The notes: generated from the sequence alone by a model not told the origin. Counted from the stretch's first letter, positions 4,995 through 51,516 are shown. The stretch is DNA of 64,000 bases from Candidatus Kapaibacterium sp. (GCA_018883125.1 VEQR01000004.1:5963-69962); one strand, 5' to 3'. Made by a program: numbers and translations.

Positions 4995-6294
4995 TCCAGC
5001 GCGCAACTTCTTTCAGCGTTGGCTTCTTCCCGTAGGAGAGAATGCCAATGCGGTAGATCCGCGAGGCAAGCCACACAGCACCGAAGAACGCCCCAATACT
5101 GAGCGCCATACTCAGCATCATCTGCCATGCCGGTACATCGGTTGCCGCCACGCGCACCGTCATAAGGATGGGGGAGAAGAGCGGGATCATCGACATCAGC
5201 GTGGCAAAGGTGCTGTTTGGAGCGCTGATGATGTTGCCGATGAACATCATCGTCAGGATCACCGGCATCGTCACTGGTAGTGTGAGCGACTGCGCATCGG
5301 ATTCTTGATCGACAGCCGAACCAACGGCTGCGAAGAGTGAGGCGTAGAGGAAGTAGCCGGCAAAGAAGTTGAAGATGAACATCAGAATAGACGAGAGAGG
5401 AATCGCGGGAAGGATAAGCCCCTTGCTGGCAAGCAGTGCTGCTGTGTTCGTGGTTCCCTGCACCTGCATGGGTCCACCAGCTGCGGCCTGATTTGCCATA
5501 CTGTCGGCCAGCATCGGACCGAGGACAAAGCCCAAGCCAATGAAGGCCGCGATGCCGAGAAGTGCCCAAATGGCCAGCTGCGTTAGCCCCACAAGTCCGA
5601 TGCCCACAACCTTACCCATCATGATCTCGAAGGGACGCACCGATGATGCGATGACCTCCACAATGCGGTTGGCTTTTTCTTCCACAACGCCGCGCATCAC
5701 CATCGATCCGTAGAGGAAGATGAGCATGTAGATGAGAAAACCGGCGATGTAGCCGATGGCAGCGGACGCTTCCGAGGCGTCAGCTTCGACGCCTTTTTCG
5801 GTGACTTTGAGAGAGTTGATCGCCACGCCCTGTTCAACAATGTCGATGACCGACGTGTCCACACCCCGACGCGCCAACCGGGCGCGTGTGATCACCTGGT
5901 TAAAGTCGTCAGTAATGGAAGACTCGAAGCTGATCCCTGAGCCCCCTTGCGAATACATCACCAAACGCGAGCTGTCAAGAATATCCGCCGGAATGATGAT
6001 GTACGCCTGAATCTTTTCCGCTGAAAGCTCGTTGGCAAGCTGCGCTTCCGTGCGAGTGCCCGCCAGTTCGTATTTAGCCGTATCGGAGGCCATAATACGC
6101 GTTGCGAGTGAGTCGGTCTTATCGAGCAGCACCACCTTACCCTGACTGCCGTCGCCGGCCAGGGCGGCAGCGATTATGGGGATCGTCATTATGAGCACCA
6201 GACCCAAGGGGCCGAGTAGTGTTGAAACAATGAACCACTTGGCCTTGACGCGGGTCAGGTATTCGTGGGCAATGATGACGGAGATCTTGCTCAT
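4978..6294 (-). CDS. ABC-2 type (NatB-like) transporter permease
   Basis: One N-terminal TM helix, a large periplasmic loop, then 5 C-terminal TM helices; ABC-2 family appearance (..VVEEKANRIVEVIASSVRPFEIMMGKV..). No ATPase gene is adjacent. Confidence 0.7.
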   Translation of the reverse strand: MSKISVIIAHEYLTRVKAKWFIVSTLLGPLGLVLIMTIPIIAAALAGDGSQGKVVLLDKTDSLATRIMASDTAKYELAGTRTEAQLANELSAEKIQAYIIIPADILDSSRLVMYSQGGSGISFESSITDDFNQVITRARLARRGVDTSVIDIVEQGVAINSLKVTEKGVEADASEASAAIGYIAGFLIYMLIFLYGSMVMRGVVEEKANRIVEVIASSVRPFEIMMGKVVGIGLVGLTQLAIWALLGIAAFIGLGFVLGPMLADSMANQAAAGGPMQVQGTTNTAALLASKGLILPAIPLSSILMFIFNFFAGYFLYASLFAAVGSAVDQESDAQSLTLPVTMPVILTMMFIGNIISAPNSTFATLMSMIPLFSPILMTVRVAATDVPAWQMMLSMALSIGAFFGAVWLASRIYRIGILSYGKKPTLKEVARWITLRV

Positions 6295-42147: not shown

Positions 42148-42996
42148 CTATTCGCGGGAATTTCGTCGAAGAGCTTGTCCGCCAAGAATCGCAGATATCA
42201 CGATCGCGCCACCTAGTATGGACGTTGAGGAGGGCACCTCGCCCAAGGCAAGTCCCACCCACAGTGGATTGAGAAGGGGCTCCAGGACGGTAATCAGCAC
42301 GGCCTCCAGGGCTGTGACGTGGGCAAGTGCCCAGGAGTAAAGCAAGTAGGAAACTCCTAGCTGCAACATACCGAGCACCAGTAATGGGAGAATCCAATCC
42401 ATCGTTGCCGGCGGGAGCGCTCCGGCGAGTGGTGCGCACACGATAGCGGTCAGCACGTTTCCCAAGATTATGCTCTCGGTGGTTGACGTGCCACGCTGCT
42501 GACGCATGAACAGGGCAACGCCGGCAAAGGCAACGCCACTGGCAATAGCAAGGGCGTTTCCAAGGATGGCACCCGGACTTAGTGCGTCGAGAAAGAAGAC
42601 CACCATCCCAAGCATCACGCATCCAACAACAATGACGTCGCGCCTCGCAAGACGCTCCTTGGCCACGGTAGCACTGAAGATGGCCACCCACACTGGTGCG
42701 GTGTACTGAAGCAGGATTGCATTGGCTGCGGTAGTCTTCTTCGTGGCCCACACGAAGAGCACCACCGTGAACATGTAACTGATGATGCTCCCGAATTGCG
42801 CAGGCGTCCACGCTGGCTTCAGCGGCCCCTTGCGGCGAATCCAGAGAAACATCACCGCAGCGGCAATGGCACTTCGCAATCCCGCTATGGCAAGGGGCGA
42901 GAGCGGCAGCAGTTTGATAAGCAGTCCGCCACTGCTCCATAGAATGGCACATACAACCAGCGCCGCAACAGCGGCCGCATGGTGCTTGTTGTTCAT
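42148..42996 (-). CDS. EamA/DMT-family transporter
   Basis: 10 TM helices in two EamA-like halves. Confidence 0.75.
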   Translation of the reverse strand: MNNKHHAAAVAALVVCAILWSSGGLLIKLLPLSPLAIAGLRSAIAAAVMFLWIRRKGPLKPAWTPAQFGSIISYMFTVVLFVWATKKTTAANAILLQYTAPVWVAIFSATVAKERLARRDVIVVGCVMLGMVVFFLDALSPGAILGNALAIASGVAFAGVALFMRQQRGTSTTESIILGNVLTAIVCAPLAGALPPATMDWILPLLVLGMLQLGVSYLLYSWALAHVTALEAVLITVLEPLLNPLWVGLALGEVPSSTSILGGAIVISAILGGQALRRNSRE

Positions 42997-43856
42997 CGGA
43001 TGAATTCTGACTGACGGCTGGTGGTGACGTATGACTCGGCGCGCTGGGTACCCTGCGAGGCGGAGTACGTCTGGGTGGTTGATGTGGTTAGTGCCACAGG
43101 CGGAAAGCGCGCATCAAGTGGCACAACGTACCGGAACTCTGCCACGAGCGACCCGACGAGTGGGTAAGGGGCTCCTTCAAGTCGCATTGTGAACTTCGGA
43201 GCTTCAGCCCGAGCTGTAACAACAGCCGTCGTCTGCGGCCCGGTGCTATCGATGGCTGCAAACGTGACGGTGCCGTCGATCTTCTTCATCAGCCGGACCT
43301 GCTCGCGTCCAAGGATCCGTTTCAGTGCGGCAATATTCATCTTCCACGTCGAACCCAGCACGACGGGCTTCTTGGCATCAAGAACATTGCCGGTCTTTGC
43401 GCCCCCTTCACCCATCACGACGTTACTGAGAAGGGCAGCCACGGTGTCAGCGACCGGTTCGCCGTTAACGGTGAACACGCTTCCACTGTCGGAGAACCAG
43501 CATCGAACCTTTGTGCCGGTATTCATCACATCAAAGGTGTCGGTATTGGTCTGGAGCTGGAAGCTGCGGATGACCAGATTCTTCTCTTTCTCTTGGCCAT
43601 CAACGGTGACGTAGGTGACCGAACACTGGGCGGCAATAATGATGCGCACGATGTCTGTGGTGTCGCCCAACAGGTTGTCTCCACTGAAGACCTTGGTCTG
43701 CGACCGCTGCTCGTAGGTGGCCTTGAGAAGGTACTGGTCAAACTCCTTGAGCCCTCGTCCAAGCTTTAGAGTGTAAGCCGTTGGTTGCTGTGCCGAAGCA
43801 CTGGCAACGCAGATGAGGCAAAAGAGAACGACTTTAGAGAAGTGTGTTCTGAGCAT
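42993..43856 (-). CDS. Secreted hypothetical protein
   Basis: Signal peptide MLRTHFSKVVLFCLICVASASAQQ. No recognised motif. 4-bp overlap with the EamA gene. Confidence 0.5.
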   Translation of the reverse strand: MLRTHFSKVVLFCLICVASASAQQPTAYTLKLGRGLKEFDQYLLKATYEQRSQTKVFSGDNLLGDTTDIVRIIIAAQCSVTYVTVDGQEKEKNLVIRSFQLQTNTDTFDVMNTGTKVRCWFSDSGSVFTVNGEPVADTVAALLSNVVMGEGGAKTGNVLDAKKPVVLGSTWKMNIAALKRILGREQVRLMKKIDGTVTFAAIDSTGPQTTAVVTARAEAPKFTMRLEGAPYPLVGSLVAEFRYVVPLDARFPPVALTTSTTQTYSASQGTQRAESYVTTSRQSEFIR

Positions 43857-45186
43857 AGCGTCGAATGTAGGATTTCACGTCAAACTTGCGGGCGCAGCCA
43901 TTGGCATTCATGTAGCGGATCTTTCCGTAAACCGGACGTTCAAACCAGGCACGGTCATGCACGCCCCCTACACTCCAGGCAACTCCAACGTAACCGTTGG
44001 GGTCTCGTCCATCAAGAGCATACGTGTCGTTGAGCGCAATGCCGATTGCCAGTGCTTCATCCGGAGAAGCACTCCATTCGAGGATCTTCTTGGCCCAATA
44101 CATCCGCATGAATCCGTGGAGCTTGCCGGTGGTGACGAGCTCGCGCTGGGCTGCATTCCAGAGCTCATCATGGGTGCGCGCGGACTCCCATTGCTCATGA
44201 GTGTAGACGTAGTCACGAGGGTCGTTGCGATGATCGTTCAGCGTCTGCTGCGCCCACGCTGCAAATCCGTCAAACGAATCGTACCGATCGTTGTAGAACG
44301 TAAAGTTGTCGCTCAGTTCGCGTCGGATGATGAGCTCTTCAAGAAAACTGTCGGAGGGTTCCCCAACTCTCGGTGTGGCTAGGGCAGCGCGCTGCGGAGC
44401 AAGCTGGCCAAAATGGAAATAGGGCGAGAGGTTGCTCTGTCCGGCCTTTGTCGGATCATTACGATCGGCATACTGCTCGATCTTCGCAACGAAGGCGTCA
44501 AGTCGGGCACGACCAGCTGAAGCACCGGGTGTGAGCCATGACACCGGACCGATCGAGGTATTCACGCGAAGGGTCGAGCGAACAGCAGTCCAATCCGTCA
44601 GGGGGCTCGGCGCTCCATCGAACGGATGTCTCACTACACTCGGAAACTCTTCGAGGTACGTCGGCAGAAGCTTGGTGATCTTCGGTCGGATAGTATAGGC
44701 CGCAAACTCGAGCTTGGGCGAGGCGATCCAGCAGGGGACGATATTATGGGCATCCACCTGGTGAAGGGGCACGGTAGACCCGTCGATGACCTCCTTGATC
44801 CACTGCTTCTTGATGCGCAGGGGCTCAAAATCGGTGACCAGCAGCGACGGGGCTGTTTCTTCCAGTAATGGGAGCAGAGCGTCATGCGGACTACCCAGCA
44901 GTAGACGAAATCCGATGTTGACCTCGGCAAGGTCTCGCTCGAGTTCCTCGAGCCCCCGTATCATGAAGTCGTACTGGCGAAGTGTGGCTTCGAGAAACGT
45001 CGGGACAAGGCAGAACACCGCGATCAGCGGCACCTTCCGTTCTAATGCCTCCTGCTGCGCATACAGCAATGCCCAGTTGTCGTCCCGACGTCGGTCACGG
45101 TTGATCCAATAGATCACAGGTCCGGGTCCCTGCGGATCCGGCCTGCCGGGCGTAAGGATGCGAACGCGGTCGCTTCGGACGTTCAT
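43834..45186 (-). CDS. phr: Class II CPD photolyase
   Basis: ..GKLHGFMRMYWAKKILEWS.. and the N-terminal ..VIYWINRDRRRDDNWAL.. are typical of class II deoxyribodipyrimidine photolyases. Confidence 0.85.
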   Translation of the reverse strand: MNVRSDRVRILTPGRPDPQGPGPVIYWINRDRRRDDNWALLYAQQEALERKVPLIAVFCLVPTFLEATLRQYDFMIRGLEELERDLAEVNIGFRLLLGSPHDALLPLLEETAPSLLVTDFEPLRIKKQWIKEVIDGSTVPLHQVDAHNIVPCWIASPKLEFAAYTIRPKITKLLPTYLEEFPSVVRHPFDGAPSPLTDWTAVRSTLRVNTSIGPVSWLTPGASAGRARLDAFVAKIEQYADRNDPTKAGQSNLSPYFHFGQLAPQRAALATPRVGEPSDSFLEELIIRRELSDNFTFYNDRYDSFDGFAAWAQQTLNDHRNDPRDYVYTHEQWESARTHDELWNAAQRELVTTGKLHGFMRMYWAKKILEWSASPDEALAIGIALNDTYALDGRDPNGYVGVAWSVGGVHDRAWFERPVYGKIRYMNANGCARKFDVKSYIRRYAQNTLL

Positions 45187-45191
45187 GGGGA

Positions 45192-45617
45192 TTAGTCTTC
45201 TTCAACCCGGTACGAAGCGCCGGGAATGTCGGTAGGGGGCTTGGGCGTTCCATTCGAGCGCATGCGAGAGAAGGCGATCCACAATCCAAGGATGATCAGA
45301 ATGATCGGCCAGAACACACCCCAGAACTGATCGACAACGCCGAGCTTCTTTAGTTGAATCACCGTCATCACGATGATCGTGAGTCCTGACCAAAACGTCG
45401 AGCCACTGCCGGTGAGCAGACGCACCGCTGCATAGATGATCACTCCCGTGGGCCACCACATCTGCACCACACTGTACATCTCCGGCATGCCAAGTCGGTC
45501 GAGCAGCATGGCAATGCCGAAGAGCGCTACGGCCAGTCCAAGAAGAATCTGACTCAGTAGACTATCCTTTGAGCGACCAAACTGGACGCGAAACCCCTGC
45601 TGAAACTGCTGGTTCAT
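45192..45617 (-). CDS. Small integral membrane protein (4 TM, LiaF/DUF5668-like)
   Basis: Hydrophobicity pattern only. Confidence 0.45.
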   Translation of the reverse strand: MNQQFQQGFRVQFGRSKDSLLSQILLGLAVALFGIAMLLDRLGMPEMYSVVQMWWPTGVIIYAAVRLLTGSGSTFWSGLTIIVMTVIQLKKLGVVDQFWGVFWPIILIILGLWIAFSRMRSNGTPKPPTDIPGASYRVEED

Positions 45618-45641
45618 GGCTGAAGCCCCTTCAAAAACTCA

Positions 45642-46859
45642 TCAAGCGTTGGTGCCGCACTCAGCACAATCCGGACATTCCGATTCGCCATGCTCATGTT
45701 CGCGTTCAAAATCAGTGATGGCGGCAACCACTTCTCGAATATGGTGCTCTTCCAGCTCCGGATAGATCGGCAGCGAGAGAACCGTTGCAGCCAGGCAATT
45801 GGATATCGGGAAGGCGTTGTCATCGCAATTCAGCGAGGCAAAACACTCCTGACGATGGAACGGCACCGGGTAGTAGATCTCGCTACCAATGCCGCGCTCC
45901 GCCAGGTATGACCGCAGGGCATTGCGGTGAGCGGTGCGGATCGTAAACTGATTGAAGATGTGGTTGTCGGTTGAGGTGCCGGCACTGACAGCCTTTGGAA
46001 GCAGTATCGCATTGCCCGGACCAAACGATGTGACGCCAGGAGCACTGCTCAATCCGGCTTCGATGAAGAGCTTCGTGTAGAGCTCAGCATTGCGCCGTCG
46101 TCCCTCGTGCCATGATGGAAGGTGCGGAAGCTTCACGCGCAGAACAGCCCCCTGCATGGCATCAAGGCGGAAGTTCCCGCCCATGATCCTGTGGTAGTAA
46201 CGGGGCTCCATGCCATGATTGCGGATCTGCTTCAAGCGCACCGCCAACTCGTCGTCATTGGTTGTCACAAGTCCGCCATCGCCAAAAGCGCCAAGGTTCT
46301 TCGTCGGGTAGAACGAGAAGCATCCGATGTGGCCGATGCTTCCGACGCGGCGTCCATCTGATGTCTGTGTACCGATGGCCTGAGCCGCATCCTCAATGAT
46401 GGGGATGTTGAGCTCACGGCTAATGTCCATGAAGGTATCCATGTTGGCGGCCTGACCAAACAGGTGCACAGGGATGATGGCCTTTGTGCGCGGGGTGATA
46501 GCCTTACGCGTGAGTTCGGGGTCGAGATTGAATGTGACGTTGTCGACGTCCACAAACACCGGCGTTGCATTCAGGCGTGCAACGCATCCGGCCGTTGCGA
46601 AGAACGAGAATGTTGGAACGATGACCTCATCGCCCGGGCCAACTCCGAGAGCCATCAGTGCCATTAGTAGGGCATCGGTCCCGCTCGAAACGCCGATGGC
46701 GTGCTTCACGCCCAGATAGGACTCAAGCTCGCGTTCAAGGGCATCCACTTCCGGACCCAGGATGCAGGCCTGAGATTCGGCAACTCGGATCAGGGCCGCG
46801 TCGATCTCTGGCTTGAGCGCGCGGTACTGTATTTTGAGGTCCAGCAAGGGTACGGGCAT
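45642..46859 (-). CDS. DegT/DnrJ/EryC1/StrS-family sugar aminotransferase
   Basis: MPVPLLDLKIQYRALKPEID.. N-terminus and PLP-lysine context FSFYPTKNLGAFGDGG. Confidence 0.85.
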   Translation of the reverse strand: MPVPLLDLKIQYRALKPEIDAALIRVAESQACILGPEVDALERELESYLGVKHAIGVSSGTDALLMALMALGVGPGDEVIVPTFSFFATAGCVARLNATPVFVDVDNVTFNLDPELTRKAITPRTKAIIPVHLFGQAANMDTFMDISRELNIPIIEDAAQAIGTQTSDGRRVGSIGHIGCFSFYPTKNLGAFGDGGLVTTNDDELAVRLKQIRNHGMEPRYYHRIMGGNFRLDAMQGAVLRVKLPHLPSWHEGRRRNAELYTKLFIEAGLSSAPGVTSFGPGNAILLPKAVSAGTSTDNHIFNQFTIRTAHRNALRSYLAERGIGSEIYYPVPFHRQECFASLNCDDNAFPISNCLAATVLSLPIYPELEEHHIREVVAAITDFEREHEHGESECPDCAECGTNA

Positions 46860-46905
46860 TCAGTTCACTTTCGCGTCGGAAATGGAAAGCACAAAATTAG
46901 CCAGA

Positions 46906-47328
46906 ATGAACCGACGGTCGTGGCTTCGGACAATTGCCGCCGCAGCAGGACTTACAACCATCTCGTTGGCTACCACGGAGTATCTGCAGCCGCAGGGTGA
47001 TTCCGGCGCACGAACGGTGGATCTTGGTCCGATCGATGAGGTGATCTCCGATGGAACGCGGCGGGTGGTAAACGTCAATGGCCGGATGGCACTGCTGAGC
47101 AGACGTGCCGATGTTGTGACAGCGCTAGACCTAACATGCACACATGCCGGTTGTCCGCTGGCATTCGATGCGAAGACTCAGCGCATCCGCTGCGCCTGCC
47201 ACGGTGGAGCATTTGCCGTCACGGGCGAGCCCGTTGCCGGACCGCCCCGCAGGCCCCTTGACCAGTTGGAGTGCCGCACCGAGAATGGCAGACTGTATAT
47301 CCGAACACAGTTGAATGGCGATGTATGA
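46906..47328 (+). CDS. Tat-exported Rieske [2Fe-2S] protein
   Basis: Twin-arginine signal MNRRSWLRTIAAAAG. Cluster-binding boxes CTHAGCP and CACHGGAF. An earlier start (46813) would overlap the divergent DegT gene. Confidence 0.8.
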   Translation: MNRRSWLRTIAAAAGLTTISLATTEYLQPQGDSGARTVDLGPIDEVISDGTRRVVNVNGRMALLSRRADVVTALDLTCTHAGCPLAFDAKTQRIRCACHGGAFAVTGEPVAGPPRRPLDQLECRTENGRLYIRTQLNGDV

Positions 47329-48344
47329 CGAGCGCCGCGAGATCATCGCTGGAGAGCGCGCAGCCTATCCTAATCGGACTCAGCGCTGCCACTCTGTTGT
47401 TGGTTGTGGTCACCGGAATGCTGCTCTCGATGTGGTACGTGCCGTCCTCGGATCCTCTGCGCACGTCTACCGGTGCGGCTCAGACGATCGTCACGTCCAC
47501 ACGACTTCTCCACAGCGGACCGTATACCGACACCATCACTGCCTCATCCGTAAACCCACAGCTCGCCCCGGCATCAACCGGCGAGCCGGCTGTTAGCGCC
47601 GCGCAGAGTTCTATCCGCGTAACCATCCACAACGCCCCCTATGGAAGTGCTGTCCGCAGCATCCATCACTGGATGTCGGACATCCTGCTAGCGTTGCTCA
47701 CGACGCTGATGTCGGTGCTATGTGTGCTGCGGACCTACGAGGCAGACCGCTCGTTGTGGCTAAGGTTGATATCGCTAACACTGATAACTGTGGCAGGGGG
47801 CTGGACGGGCCGCATACTCGTTGATGACGTGTATGCTGAGATCTCCCGTCGTATCATGGGGTACGAGCTTCAGACGGCACCGTTAGGCAATGCCATTTCG
47901 GCCATCCTCGGAATTCAGCCTGGAGCGCTGCTTCTTGCCCGCACGTATTCGGTGCATGGTTTTATGCTTGGTGTAATTGGCCTGTTGCTGATCACCCCGA
48001 ACCTTCGTCAGATACTTGTCCAAGCATCGCGTCCACCGTTCTTCTCCACCGCACTTCTCGTTTCAGTGGCAGTCTCGTTCATTTCCGTTCCGGACTGGGG
48101 GCTGCGCGACGCTTTAAGGGGACTTGCCGGCTGGGAGCACGTCACTCCCTGGTGGGGAATCGTGCCCTTCCGCACATGGTCGCACTGGCTAGGCTCCGAG
48201 CTGGCAGGATACCTGGCGATCCCGGCGATCATAGCCTTTGGGTCACTACCGCTCTGGTATCGGCAGATTTCCAAGCGGGCGGTAACGATTCTTTTTACGG
48301 TCATCGCCCTCGCGTTACTAGTGGGGTTTCTGTTCGGCTATTGA
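47325..48344 (+). CDS. Divergent cytochrome b-like membrane protein (fused b6 + subunit IV-like)
   Basis: ATGA overlap with the Rieske gene. ..GSAVRSIHHWMSDILLALL.. resembles LIRSVHRWSASMMVLMM of cytochrome b6; ..WTGRILVDD.. resembles GY.LPWDQ; ..TPWWGIVPF.. resembles PEWYF. About 8 TM helices. Confidence 0.6.
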   Translation: MTSAARSSLESAQPILIGLSAATLLLVVVTGMLLSMWYVPSSDPLRTSTGAAQTIVTSTRLLHSGPYTDTITASSVNPQLAPASTGEPAVSAAQSSIRVTIHNAPYGSAVRSIHHWMSDILLALLTTLMSVLCVLRTYEADRSLWLRLISLTLITVAGGWTGRILVDDVYAEISRRIMGYELQTAPLGNAISAILGIQPGALLLARTYSVHGFMLGVIGLLLITPNLRQILVQASRPPFFSTALLVSVAVSFISVPDWGLRDALRGLAGWEHVTPWWGIVPFRTWSHWLGSELAGYLAIPAIIAFGSLPLWYRQISKRAVTILFTVIALALLVGFLFGY

Positions 48345-48416
48345 GCGCCGATTTCGCACTTTTGCAGTCTTGTATTGCAGAAAATTCCCCCAACAACTCA
48401 CCAATCGAGGATGGTT

Positions 48417-49529
48417 ATGCTGATCGGCGTACCAAAGGAAATCAAGACAAATGAAAAGCGCGTGGCGCTCACACCCGGTGGTGTTGATGCCCTTCGCTCT
48501 AACGGTCATGACGTGATCGTTGAAACCAATGCCGGCGTCGGTAGTGGATTTTCGAACGAAGCCTACATCGCAGCCGGCGCAACCATCATTGATACGGCTG
48601 CCGAGGTGTATGCCAAGGCCGACATGATCATGAAGGTAAAAGAGCCTATCGCACCCGAGTACAGCCTCATCCGTAAGGGTCAGACGCTCTTCACGTACTT
48701 CCACTTTGCTGCTTCACGCGAGCTCACCGAGGCAATGGTCAAAGCTGGTGCTACGTGTATCGCCTATGAGACGGTTCAGAAGTCCGATGGCTCGCTGCCG
48801 CTTCTGATCCCGATGTCGGAAGTTGCCGGACGTATGGCAACGCAAGAAGGTGCGAAGTACCTTGAGCATCCTATGGGCGGACGCGGCATTCTCCTCGGCG
48901 GTGTGCCAGGTACACGTCCTGCGGAAGTTGTTGTTCTCGGCGGTGGCGTTGTTGGAACGAACGCTGCGAAGATGGCTGCCGGACTGGGTGCAAGCGTTAC
49001 GCTGTTCGATAACAACCTCTACCGTTTGCGCTACCTTAACGACGTAATGCCCGCCAACGTCGTCACGCAGATGTCCACCAAGGCCAACATCCGCGAAGCT
49101 GTCAAGACGGCAGACCTTGTGGTTGGTGGTGTGCTGATCGTTGGGGCCAAGGCTCCGCACCTGATCACGCGCGACATGCTTTCGACGATGAAGCCCGGTT
49201 CGGTGATCGTTGACGTTTCGGTCGATCAAGGGGGCTGTGTGGAAACCTGCAAGCCAACAACGCACGAAAACCCAACGTATGTGGTCGACGGTGTTGTACA
49301 TTATGGTGTGGCCAATATGCCGGGAGCTGTGCCATACACATCAACGATTGCTCTCACCAACGCCACGCTTCCATACGCCATTCAGCTGGCCAACCACGGC
49401 TGGAAGGATGCCTGCAAGGCCAGCAAGGAACTTGAGCTTGGCATCAACGTGGTTGATGGTAAGATCGTTTACGAAGCTGTTGCCGAAGCATTTGGCATGG
49501 AATACACGCCAATGGAGCAGTGCTGGTAA
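48417..49529 (+). CDS. ald: Alanine dehydrogenase
   Basis: MLIGVPKEIKTNEKRVALTPGGV N-terminus and NAD fold VVVLGGGVVGTNAAKMA. GAGG lies 6 nt upstream of ATG 48417. Confidence 0.9.
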   Translation: MLIGVPKEIKTNEKRVALTPGGVDALRSNGHDVIVETNAGVGSGFSNEAYIAAGATIIDTAAEVYAKADMIMKVKEPIAPEYSLIRKGQTLFTYFHFAASRELTEAMVKAGATCIAYETVQKSDGSLPLLIPMSEVAGRMATQEGAKYLEHPMGGRGILLGGVPGTRPAEVVVLGGGVVGTNAAKMAAGLGASVTLFDNNLYRLRYLNDVMPANVVTQMSTKANIREAVKTADLVVGGVLIVGAKAPHLITRDMLSTMKPGSVIVDVSVDQGGCVETCKPTTHENPTYVVDGVVHYGVANMPGAVPYTSTIALTNATLPYAIQLANHGWKDACKASKELELGINVVDGKIVYEAVAEAFGMEYTPMEQCW

Positions 49530-49562
49530 GCCCCGTATCAACGGATGCGATGATTCTACGAC

Positions 49563-49590
49563 AATGGCTCCCTCGGGAGCCATTTTCATT
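49563..49590 (+). terminator. Rho-independent terminator after ald
   Basis: Stem AATGGCTCC / GGAGCCATT (49563-49584), followed by TTCATT. Confidence 0.65.
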
Positions 49591-49603
49591 AGATTGCCTT
49601 CGT

Positions 49604-50503
49604 ATGAAGACGAAGAAACGTCAACCAATGCTCAGCCGGCTCGTCATCCTTACGGTGGTGTGCATCGCTGCGCTTGCCAGTGCATCGGTATCACAGGCGC
49701 AGCAAGCTGTGCCTATTGGCACATGGGTAACGGTGGAGAAGACCGATGATGGTCGGTACGTGGGTGTTTTGTTGTCGGCTGACGAGCGGGAAGTACTCCT
49801 AGATTCCACCGCCATCGGTTCGGTGATGATTCCGCGCACACTTGTGCGCTCCATATTGCCGGCCGCCGGTCAGGCAAGCCAGCAGCGCGCATTAGCTGCG
49901 CAGACGCTACCGTTTTCATCGCGGTATTTCATAACGACCAATGGCTTCCCGATCGGTGATGATGGTGCCTACATCCTCTTTACCACGTTTGGTCCGGACT
50001 TTCAGTTTGCACCGACGGAGAACCTCTCGGTGGGGATTCTTACCACGTATATCGGCTCGCCGATTCTCGGATCGATCAAGGCAACAACGCGAGTTTCCGA
50101 TAATGTGAATGCCGCTGCCGGAGCACTGATTGGCTGGAATGGTTGGATTCCTGAATTCATCTTCTTTGCCCTTCCCTATGGATCGCTCACCTTTGGAAGT
50201 CGTGCATCGAACGTTACGCTGTCAACAGGATATGGATACGTCTCCTACGACGGCGATGGCGGTGGACGAGCAATGTTCTCCGTTGCAGGGCAGACGCATG
50301 CCTGGTCAAAGGTCTCGCTGATGTTCGACTCGATCATCCTCTCGGCTGGTTCCAGCACCGGTATGCTGGTGTTCGGCATGCCTGGAGTGCGTGTGGCCAC
50401 CGGACGCAATTCCGCATTCCAGGTGGCGTTCCCATTTGTTTACGCAGAGAATGAGCTGCGGATGGTTCCTGTTCCAACCGTCGGGTATTTCGTGAGGATG
50501 TGA
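49604..50503 (+). CDS. Hypothetical exported/membrane protein, paralogue 1 of a tandem pair
   Basis: Signal peptide MKTKKRQPMLSRLVILTVVCIAALASASVSQAQ. A small N-terminal domain ends ..PRTLVRSILP, followed by a Gly/aromatic-rich hydrophobic region. Homologous to the next gene. Confidence 0.5.
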   Translation: MKTKKRQPMLSRLVILTVVCIAALASASVSQAQQAVPIGTWVTVEKTDDGRYVGVLLSADEREVLLDSTAIGSVMIPRTLVRSILPAAGQASQQRALAAQTLPFSSRYFITTNGFPIGDDGAYILFTTFGPDFQFAPTENLSVGILTTYIGSPILGSIKATTRVSDNVNAAAGALIGWNGWIPEFIFFALPYGSLTFGSRASNVTLSTGYGYVSYDGDGGGRAMFSVAGQTHAWSKVSLMFDSIILSAGSSTGMLVFGMPGVRVATGRNSAFQVAFPFVYAENELRMVPVPTVGYFVRM

Positions 50504-51516
50504 TGAAGCGCCTGCACATAATCATCCTTGCAATACTGTTGGTACCCGCAGCCACTGTGTTTTCTCAGCAGCAGACATGGACAGATAGCCTGTCAATGCA
50601 GAGTATTGAACGTCATGACGGCAGCGAGCTGCGTGGACGTGTTGTAGCGATGAATGCACGCGAGGTTACCATCGTATTGGCCGATGGCACGCGTCTAGTT
50701 CTGCCGAAGCACCTTGTCCGGTCAATCATTCCGCTCGATAGCCCACAGCAGCAGTCGGCAGTTTCCGCTGTACAGACCGCAACGTATTTCGTGACATCCA
50801 GTGCCTTGCCGATGCCCAAGGGGACATCGACACTGCAGTTCAACATTGCCGGCGTTGCTCTGGAGGCCTTTCCTACGGAGCGTCTCAGTATAGGGGTTCT
50901 TTCCTCCTGGATCAGTGCTCCGATCATCGCCACAGCTATGGTTCGTATGCCCGTTGCCGACAATGTTTGGCTGGGTGCAGGGGGCATAGTTGGCTGGGGT
51001 GGAAGTCTGGCAGATAGGAATTTCTTTGCCGCACCAACGCTGACGCTGACGGTTTTGTCGGGCTCGACATCGTTCTCGCTGACAGGGGGCTATGGGGCTA
51101 CGTCACTCAAGGTAGAGACGTATACTCAACCCGACTACTCTGCAGTGCGAGACACGCTGCAGGTAACCTCTCCCCGAGCCTATGCAGCCCTCGGAGTCTC
51201 GCTGAAACTTGCGCGGAAGATCAGGTTGATCGTCGATGCATTTATGATCTCCGGCTCGGGATCCGTGACGCTGCCCGATGGGCGTTGGGTATGGACAGAC
51301 GTTTACAACTACTACGACCCGAGTTCGGACTTCACCAGATCGTTCGAGACCTACTCAAATATTTTCATCATCCCCGCCATCCGGTGGGACTATTCAGTTG
51401 ATGCCTATTGGCAGTTTGGTTTCGCTGGCTACAAGGGTAACCTGCTGAATCTCGAGGATAACTCGAATTGGTCGCCCATTCCCATACCTGTTGTTCAGTG
51501 GGTGATTGCCCTATAG
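50503..51516 (+). CDS. Hypothetical exported/membrane protein, paralogue 2
   Basis: Signal peptide MKRLHIIILAILLVPAATVFSQ. Shares ..LPKHLVRSIIP.. and ..FPTERLSIGVLSS.. with the upstream gene. TGATG overlap with it. Confidence 0.5.
   Translation: MKRLHIIILAILLVPAATVFSQQQTWTDSLSMQSIERHDGSELRGRVVAMNAREVTIVLADGTRLVLPKHLVRSIIPLDSPQQQSAVSAVQTATYFVTSSALPMPKGTSTLQFNIAGVALEAFPTERLSIGVLSSWISAPIIATAMVRMPVADNVWLGAGGIVGWGGSLADRNFFAAPTLTLTVLSGSTSFSLTGGYGATSLKVETYTQPDYSAVRDTLQVTSPRAYAALGVSLKLARKIRLIVDAFMISGSGSVTLPDGRWVWTDVYNYYDPSSDFTRSFETYSNIFIIPAIRWDYSVDAYWQFGFAGYKGNLLNLEDNSNWSPIPIPVVQWVIAL

Follow-up and report, generated by a model that had tools for sequence, protein, structure and literature searches.

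A Rieske protein coupled to a cytochrome b homolog with one heme-ligand pair in Candidatus Kapaibacterium

What can a cytochrome b do when the ligands of its second heme are gone? The question is posed by a two-gene locus in a 64,000-nucleotide stretch of DNA from Candidatus Kapaibacterium sp. (GCA_018883125.1, VEQR01000004.1:5963-69962; hereafter the window), where the gene for a Rieske [2Fe-2S] protein runs into that for a cytochrome b-like protein of 339 amino acids (aa). A first-pass annotation, made from the nucleotide sequence, had proposed a Rieske/mono-heme b module incapable of a Q cycle. The profile alignments and the structural model described here support this proposal, and from them we infer the heme stoichiometry: very probably, a single heme on the P side (bL/bp) and no Q cycle. 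This reading follows from three observations together, namely that only the P-side histidine pair is kept, that the N-side determinants are lost, and that the genome holds no second cytochrome b.

Cytochrome b homology and heme-ligand positions

By its sequence and its predicted fold, the 339-aa protein is a true homolog of cytochrome b, of the type in which b6 and subunit IV are joined. As a single sequence it matches the Pfam family Cytochrome_B below the gathering cut-off (22-24 bits vs 27), and it aligns with a solved cytochrome b6 (2zt9_A) at E=2e-7. With a profile built from 24 diverse members of the family, the match to b6 reaches E=1e-21. Over residues 85-333 the same profile aligns with full-length cytochrome b of complex III; the subunit IV-like C-terminal half is therefore homologous as well, and the homology takes in both the four-helix N-terminal core and the C-terminal part of three helices. 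Corresponding segments of the window protein and b6 are RSIHHW and RSIHRW, TGRILVDD and TGYSLPWD, and PWWG and PEWY; the alignment offsets place the N-terminus about 20 residues short of that of b6, where these residues contribute to the Qi side. An earlier structural model, built from 16 close sequences, had a pLDDT of 48. The AlphaFold2 model calculated with an alignment of 35 sequences, drawn from the loci of relatives, has a pLDDT of 81.6 and a pTM of 0.82 and contains seven transmembrane (TM) helices. This is the number found in b6 plus subunit IV, and it replaces the eight helices that had been counted initially. In a Foldseek search of the PDB, the best 50 matches to the model are all complex III cytochrome b (probability 1.0, TM-score 0.52-0.64), so that structural comparison and profile alignment agree on the homology that had been noticed by eye. 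The protein also scores 52 bits with the NCBIfam model ExtP, a cytochrome b of selenite/tellurite operons, under its curated cut-off of 290.

The family alignment, of 35 members that are 26-80% identical, was complemented by smaller alignments of 16 and 24 sequences. In all three, His114 and His211 are the sole invariant histidines, and they fall on the two b6 positions that ligate heme bp/bL (Table 1). The surroundings of the P-side heme are preserved with them: T/S30-G31 of helix A and Arg111 are fixed in the 35 sequences, as are the two histidines. The N-side positions present the opposite picture. Leu128 stands where b6 has the helix B ligand of heme bn/bH, and Pro225 and Asn226 stand at or near the helix D ligand, as originally read; the profile alignment does not recover the four canonical histidines. 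Neither is a conserved substitute found close by, as a histidine four residues or fewer from position 128 occurs in one of the 35 members, and one anywhere in the segment 221-230 likewise in one. The residues at the N-side ligand positions vary and are for the most part unable to ligate a heme. The arginine that pairs with the bH propionate, the helix C glycine near this heme and the cysteine of heme ci are gone or variable in the family too. Judged from its sequence, the protein possesses nothing that could hold an N-side heme or build a Qi site.

The C-terminal end varies among relatives. In several of them (for example G398, G422, G041, G361, G283 and G134) the profile match, close to the 3' end, reads through one or two stop codons, and some members of the family end after 306-312 aa, without the last helix. 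Helix G appears from these sequences to be dispensable or variably truncated.

Table 1. Coordinates of the Rieske/cytochrome b locus and of related one-heme genes (window positions, except where a locus is named)
Feature	Residue	Position	Strand	Basis or conservation
Rieske [2Fe-2S] protein gene		46882-47328	+	148 aa from conserved upstream ATG
Tat (twin-arginine) motif, RR inside NRRSWLR		46912-46917	+	Direct reading of sequence; kept in 27 relatives
Rieske box I, CTHAGC (cluster Cys and His, disulfide Cys)		47137-47154	+	Family-wide conservation
Rieske box II, CACHGG, followed by A-F		47191-47208	+	
ATGA overlap, Rieske stop/cytochrome b start		47325-47328	+	
Cytochrome b-like gene, 339 aa, seven predicted TM helices, b6 plus subunit IV type		47325-48344	+	
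Heme ci Cys position (b6 Cys35, helix A CxGG motif)	Ile15			Variable, never Cys (35 sequences)
AB-loop (periplasmic) insert, four predicted beta strands	~42-90	47448-47594	+	
b6 His86 position (helix B ligand, heme bp/bL)	His114	47664-47666	+	HMMER alignments; invariant in 35/35
b6 His100 position (helix B ligand, heme bn/bH)	Leu128	47706-47708	+	HMMER alignments; L, W, V, A, T in family, never His (35 sequences)
bH propionate Arg position (b6 Arg103)	131			Aliphatic in family
Helix C Gly position near bH (b6 Gly121)	148			Mostly bulky in family
cd-loop/Qo-region motif GGWTGRILVDDVYAEISRRIMGYEL		47796-47870	+	Aligns with canonical FGVTGYSLPWDQ motif
b6 His187 position (helix D ligand, heme bp/bL)	His211	47955-47957	+	HMMER alignments; invariant in 35/35
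b6 His202 position (helix D ligand, heme bn/bH), at Asn226	Pro225-Asn226	47997-48002	+	HMMER alignment offset; D, L, N, E, P and others at 226 in family
P-W-W motif, ef loop, replacing P-E-W of PEWY		48147-48155	+	MAFFT column check against canonical cytochrome b
Second one-heme subfamily, locus L042		5797-6789	-	
Second one-heme subfamily, locus L047		6001-7155		
Second one-heme subfamily, locus L049		6001-7122		

The Rieske partner and the periplasmic face

The Rieske protein bears all that a bc-type member of its family needs for its cluster. Both cluster boxes and both disulfide cysteines are intact, and the match to Pfam PF00355 (Rieske), which includes both ligand boxes, scores 45.7 bits against a gathering cut-off of 20.3. 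The twin-arginine motif NRRSWLR is followed by a hydrophobic stretch of 16 residues, so the description of a Tat-signal Rieske protein with CTHAGC and CACHGG boxes holds. The closest solved relative is the Rieske iron-sulfur protein of Chlorobaculum tepidum (8hn2_A, E=7e-13). In high-potential Rieske proteins, a serine and a tyrosine raise the potential of the cluster. Their positions are occupied here by the glycine and the phenylalanine of CACHGGAF, which suggests a cluster of lower potential; such a potential would fit menaquinol.

The ATGA overlap that had been proposed between the two genes is present. A scan with one genome per species gave 29 related loci, labeled nearly all as Kapaibacterium, Ignavibacteria or Bacteroidota metagenome-assembled genomes, and the Rieske gene lies directly upstream of the cytochrome b gene in every one of them. 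In the five closest (L012-L016) the Rieske match stops at base 6001, the start of the cytochrome b gene, which fits the overlap. The start of the Rieske gene itself has to be moved. It had been placed at 46906, giving a product of 140 aa, and the more likely start is the ATG 24 nt upstream, at 46882. This start is favored because the N-terminus that it adds, MESTKLARMNRR, is conserved (the pattern in relatives is MESTKLARM(N/D)RR), and because in distant relatives the equivalent methionine is the sole one, the internal methionine being replaced by threonine. In locus L013 a stop codon immediately precedes the upstream ATG. With a start at 46882, the DegT gene, which is divergent, is just 22 bp away.

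On the cytochrome b side, the periplasmic Qo face is, as judged from the alignment, strictly conserved in a new form, without decay. Where canonical proteins have FGVTGYSLPWDQ, the window protein has GGWTGRILVDD, and the residues G162, R163, L165, D167, D168, Y170 and S174 of this cd loop are invariant in the family. The ef loop likewise carries a motif of its own, with the family form P-W-W-(G/V/P): W276 is found in 35 of the 35 sequences and W277 in 34. The P-W-W-G of the window protein is neither PEWY nor one of the variants PDWY, PVWY, PPWF, APWY and GPWY, and the PWW variant is not mentioned by Kao and Hunte 2014 (PMC4122944).

A third change lies in the AB loop. In the family profile alignment, about 48 residues separate YVPS from PSxAxxS, which are contiguous in b6. 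The long insertion noticed at the outset is thus real. It is no loosely structured Ser/Thr/Ala stretch: the segment is confidently predicted as a beta element of four strands (pLDDT 85-91 in the model), with G50, D69 and T70 conserved.

Function in the host respiratory chain

The role of the pair has to be sought in a respiratory chain that is otherwise well equipped. The host assembly comprises 2.9 Mb and is 99% complete. It contains an operon resembling alternative complex III, with an actABCDEF-like layout (L046; G000:C100 3934-11686), which encodes a cytochrome c with five hemes, a molybdopterin-like/Fe-S fusion of 1013 aa, an NrfD-like subunit of 473 aa, two small proteins and another large membrane protein. 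Dihydrolipoyl dehydrogenase and LipB are encoded after this operon. Three COX1 loci (heme-copper oxidases) and several small CxxCH proteins with signal peptides are also present. Alternative complex III is the main quinol:cytochrome c reductase of this host, and the Rieske/one-heme-b module is therefore seen as an accessory branch. No second match to Cytochrome_B, Cytochrome_B_N_2 or the family profile exists in the assembly, and so the genome has neither the canonical petB/petC pair whose presence had been raised as a check nor a two-heme partner. The co-occurrence of COX1 with the module is not discriminating: 187 of the 201 genomes in the order carry COX1, as do 73 of the 75 that bear the module, and the two exceptions are 69% and 86% complete.

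We consider it probable, on balance, that the two proteins form a functional membrane complex with one P-side b heme, which serves accessory quinol oxidation without transmembrane electron transfer. In such a complex His114 and His211 would hold heme bL, with neither heme bH nor a Qi site. Menaquinol would bind and be oxidized at the Qo-type pocket. Its first electron would reduce the [2Fe-2S] cluster and from there reach a c-type cytochrome or an oxidase, periplasmic or in the membrane, and its second would be parked on heme bL with no route across the membrane. Because it could not cross, this electron would have to come back, either via the same pocket or by bL-to-bL transfer across the dimer to the Qo site of the partner, and would there reach a re-oxidized cluster or a quinone. 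The net outcome would be the conversion of quinol to quinone with both electrons entering the high-potential chain, both protons released outside and no electrogenic step. More tentatively, the pair may be a free-standing "half" bc complex made of the Rieske protein and heme bL only, in which the charged Qo pocket (R163, D167, D168 and PWW) and the new periplasmic beta-domain would carry out two-electron quinol oxidation at the outer face, for example by bL-to-bL exchange in a dimer. If true, the half-complex would be a natural and selected route to quinol oxidation without a Q cycle.

Three points weigh against accessory quinol oxidation. Laboratory bc1 complexes in which heme bH has been knocked out turn over slowly and leak superoxide, so that an efficient linear mechanism is not guaranteed. 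The Qo pocket is unusually polar, with the invariant R163, D167 and D168 at the positions of b6 Y, W and D, and a tryptophan in place of the PEWY glutamate; given this polarity, the substrate might be something other than an ordinary quinol. Finally, the neighboring genes provide no functional hint and suggest no redox partner. In favor of accessory quinol oxidation, a b6 mutant lacking one bH ligand, as it is cited in PMC10715153, still sustains some electron flow.

The same polar yet invariant pocket (R163, D167, D168 and PWW) is what lends interest to a quite different role, in which electrons flow the opposite way, from a periplasmic donor through the Rieske protein and heme b to quinone, or in which the module is not respiratory at all and acts as a redox sensor or supplies electrons to a periplasmic enzyme, with a ligand other than menaquinol in the charged pocket. 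The lower-potential cluster suggested by a CACHGGAF box without the serine and the tyrosine would suit such a role, and alternative complex III already covers the main quinol oxidation. We regard it nevertheless as unlikely, as neither a donor enzyme nor a sensor output domain is found near the pair in any of the 29 loci, and the module as a whole is built like a Qo site on which a Rieske protein docks. A bH heme bound through non-histidine ligands or by a partner subunit is very improbable: the ligand positions hold Leu/Trp/Val/Ala and Asp/Leu/Asn/Pro that vary from member to member, and the accompanying arginine and glycine are gone as well. Still harder to sustain is a heterodimer in which the one-heme protein is joined to a two-heme cytochrome b. 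No second cytochrome b lies near the pair in the 29 loci, and its absence from the nearly complete host genome led us to reject this arrangement.

The pair could also be a decaying or purely structural remnant of a former Rieske/cytochrome b complex. Published losses of bH ligands have been interpreted in this way (PMC10715153), the module is wholly absent from a sister genus (0 of 10 genomes), and alternative complex III makes it dispensable. Against this stand the Rieske ligands, all of which are intact, unlike those of Acidocella; the bL site and some 18 further columns, invariant down to 26% identity; and the retention of the gene pair in 15 genera. The ratio of nonsynonymous to synonymous substitution rates (dN/dS), from comparisons with dS below about 1.5, is 0.13-0.23 for the cytochrome b gene and 0.11-0.20 for its Rieske neighbor, values that show purifying selection on both. 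On this ground we regard a relic as improbable and reject it.

Comparison with known systems separates what is ordinary in the pair from what is peculiar to it. With b6f and bc1 it has in common the cytochrome b fold, the bL/bp site, the TG motif, the arginine before the first histidine and a bc-type Rieske protein with its disulfide, and it differs from them in having no bH/bn heme, Qi site, heme ci, c1/f subunit or PEWY. The PetC/PetB menaquinol:cytochrome c oxidoreductase of C. tepidum is organized alike, with a Rieske gene followed by a fused cytochrome b of the b6 plus subunit IV type and no c1/f gene in the operon, and both organisms belong to the Bacteroidota/Chlorobi group. Cytochrome b of the Chlorobi keeps all four histidines and a PEWY-type motif. 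The window protein departs from that of C. tepidum in lacking the bH pair, in its PWW, its charged cd loop and its AB insert of about 48 residues, and in its shorter N-terminus. A c-type cytochrome subunit is missing from the complexes of green sulfur bacteria in general; that of C. tepidum has no cytochrome c1 and passes electrons to cytochrome c-556, which is encoded separately (PMC10172866). The earlier statement that no c1/f gene is adjacent to the window pair is confirmed: there is no CxxCH open reading frame within about 7 kb of the pair, and no cytochrome c Pfam match among its neighbors. Because C. tepidum, the source of the closest solved Rieske relative, also lacks c1 in its complex, the missing c1/f gene is nothing special in this lineage.

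Loss of the bH site itself has precedents. In the "deranged" bc1 of acidophilic Acetobacteraceae (Acidiphilium and Acidocella; PMC10715153) both bH histidines are naturally lost, as here. There, however, the Rieske protein either has lost its ligands too or is not encoded at all, and the complex is taken to be non-functional (PMC10715153), whereas the Rieske protein of the window pair is intact and both its genes are under purifying selection. The cytochrome b of Pyrobaculum misses the fourth histidine, hence one ligand (Kao and Hunte 2014, PMC4122944), and in subfamily K of the short cyanobacterial cytochromes b the helix-2 histidine and the helix-1 glycine that accommodates bn are replaced (Dibrova et al. 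2017, PMC5600118). Like the window protein, these two show a natural replacement of a bH/bn ligand that puts the heme number in doubt; unlike it, they belong to other phyla and have neither an AB insert nor a remodeled Qo motif. The trait is thus not unique, and the wider clade described below is also without heme bH. The four heme-binding histidines have been treated as invariant, and a large survey left out sequences without them (Kao and Hunte 2014, PMC4122944). A literature search combining Kapabacteria and Rieske found nothing, and papers on Kapabacteria genomes name alternative complex III and oxidases without this module. What sets the present case apart is a conserved bH-less family with an intact Rieske partner and a remodeled Qo face, whose member here, without a two-heme companion, is the sole cytochrome b that its genome encodes. 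The family lets one ask in a natural setting what a Qo site can do when the low-potential chain ends at heme bL, how short-circuits and superoxide formation are avoided, and how bc complexes come to lose or acquire the branch that crosses the membrane.

Distribution, origin and gene neighborhood of the one-heme family

How widespread is the histidine-deficient variant? This question had accompanied the original proposal, and a search of the order with the family profile answers it: 75 of 201 genomes and 15 of 65 genera carry the module, including all 29 genomes of the own genus of the host. On a wider scale, an exhaustive profile search of 1.84 billion representatives returned 270 matches. When the close family and the best 150 of these 270 were aligned, 75 proteins showed the bL histidines only and 76 all four. 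A quick maximum-likelihood tree places the window protein in a clade of 47 rows, 44 of them bL-only and three partial, with a support of 82 in the Shimodaira-Hasegawa-like approximate likelihood ratio test (SH-aLRT); the AB loop is long in all but three of these rows. The Rieske-coupled family forms a subclade of 23 rows within it (SH-aLRT 97). Proteins with the bL pair only occur at several other places in the tree, and its well-supported branches require at least eight changes of state. The window family may head an undescribed and diverse clade of putative one-heme cytochromes b, amounting to 44 clusters at 50% identity.

Relatives with the same insert help to order the events. A second one-heme subfamily of this clade, with the AB insert, has no Rieske gene and lies in the conserved context NuoD-like, SpoU methylase, cytochrome b, asparagine synthase (loci in Table 1). 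Another family of the same class has the insert and keeps four histidines and PEWY (L041, 4946-6469). L045 (5294-7234) encodes a single 646-aa fusion of Rieske protein and cytochrome b, with the insert, four histidines and PPWY, and the protein of L040 (5062-6465) has the insert and has lost only the helix-B bH ligand. No Rieske gene is adjacent at L040 or L041. Since the insert of L041, L045 and L040 coexists with four or nearly all of the histidines, these sequences suggest that the AB insert arose first and that heme bH was lost later. Relatives of the same class with four histidines, or with one ligand lost, thereby provide a readable evolutionary series. In a separate group of cytochrome b relatives, the proteins P0054, P0063, P0082, P0087, P0089 and P0151 have Gln, Leu or Arg at the helix-B bH ligand position; the P0054 group, mostly with the motif (V/I)RQ(A/T)HHWAALLLP, forms a clade of its own among the four-histidine proteins.

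The surroundings of the pair are stable. Down to 27% cytochrome b identity the order is photolyase, LiaF-like membrane protein and DegT aminotransferase on one side of the Rieske and cytochrome b genes, and alanine dehydrogenase on the other. We considered a functional link of the pair to these four neighbors and rejected it, as the conserved synteny looks like lineage inheritance. A Rieske/cytochrome b pair of canonical type from the same order (L043), compared for positional orthology, has no flanking genes in common with the window pair. Over 42148-49529 of the window and in loci L011-L039, the conserved order also takes in c6 and c4 on the photolyase side. Downstream of the alanine dehydrogenase gene, 49520-50503 and 50500-51516 encode tandem paralogs of 327 and 338 aa that overlap by 4 nt; they have signal-peptide-like N-termini and no Pfam match, and are kept at this place in the closer relatives.

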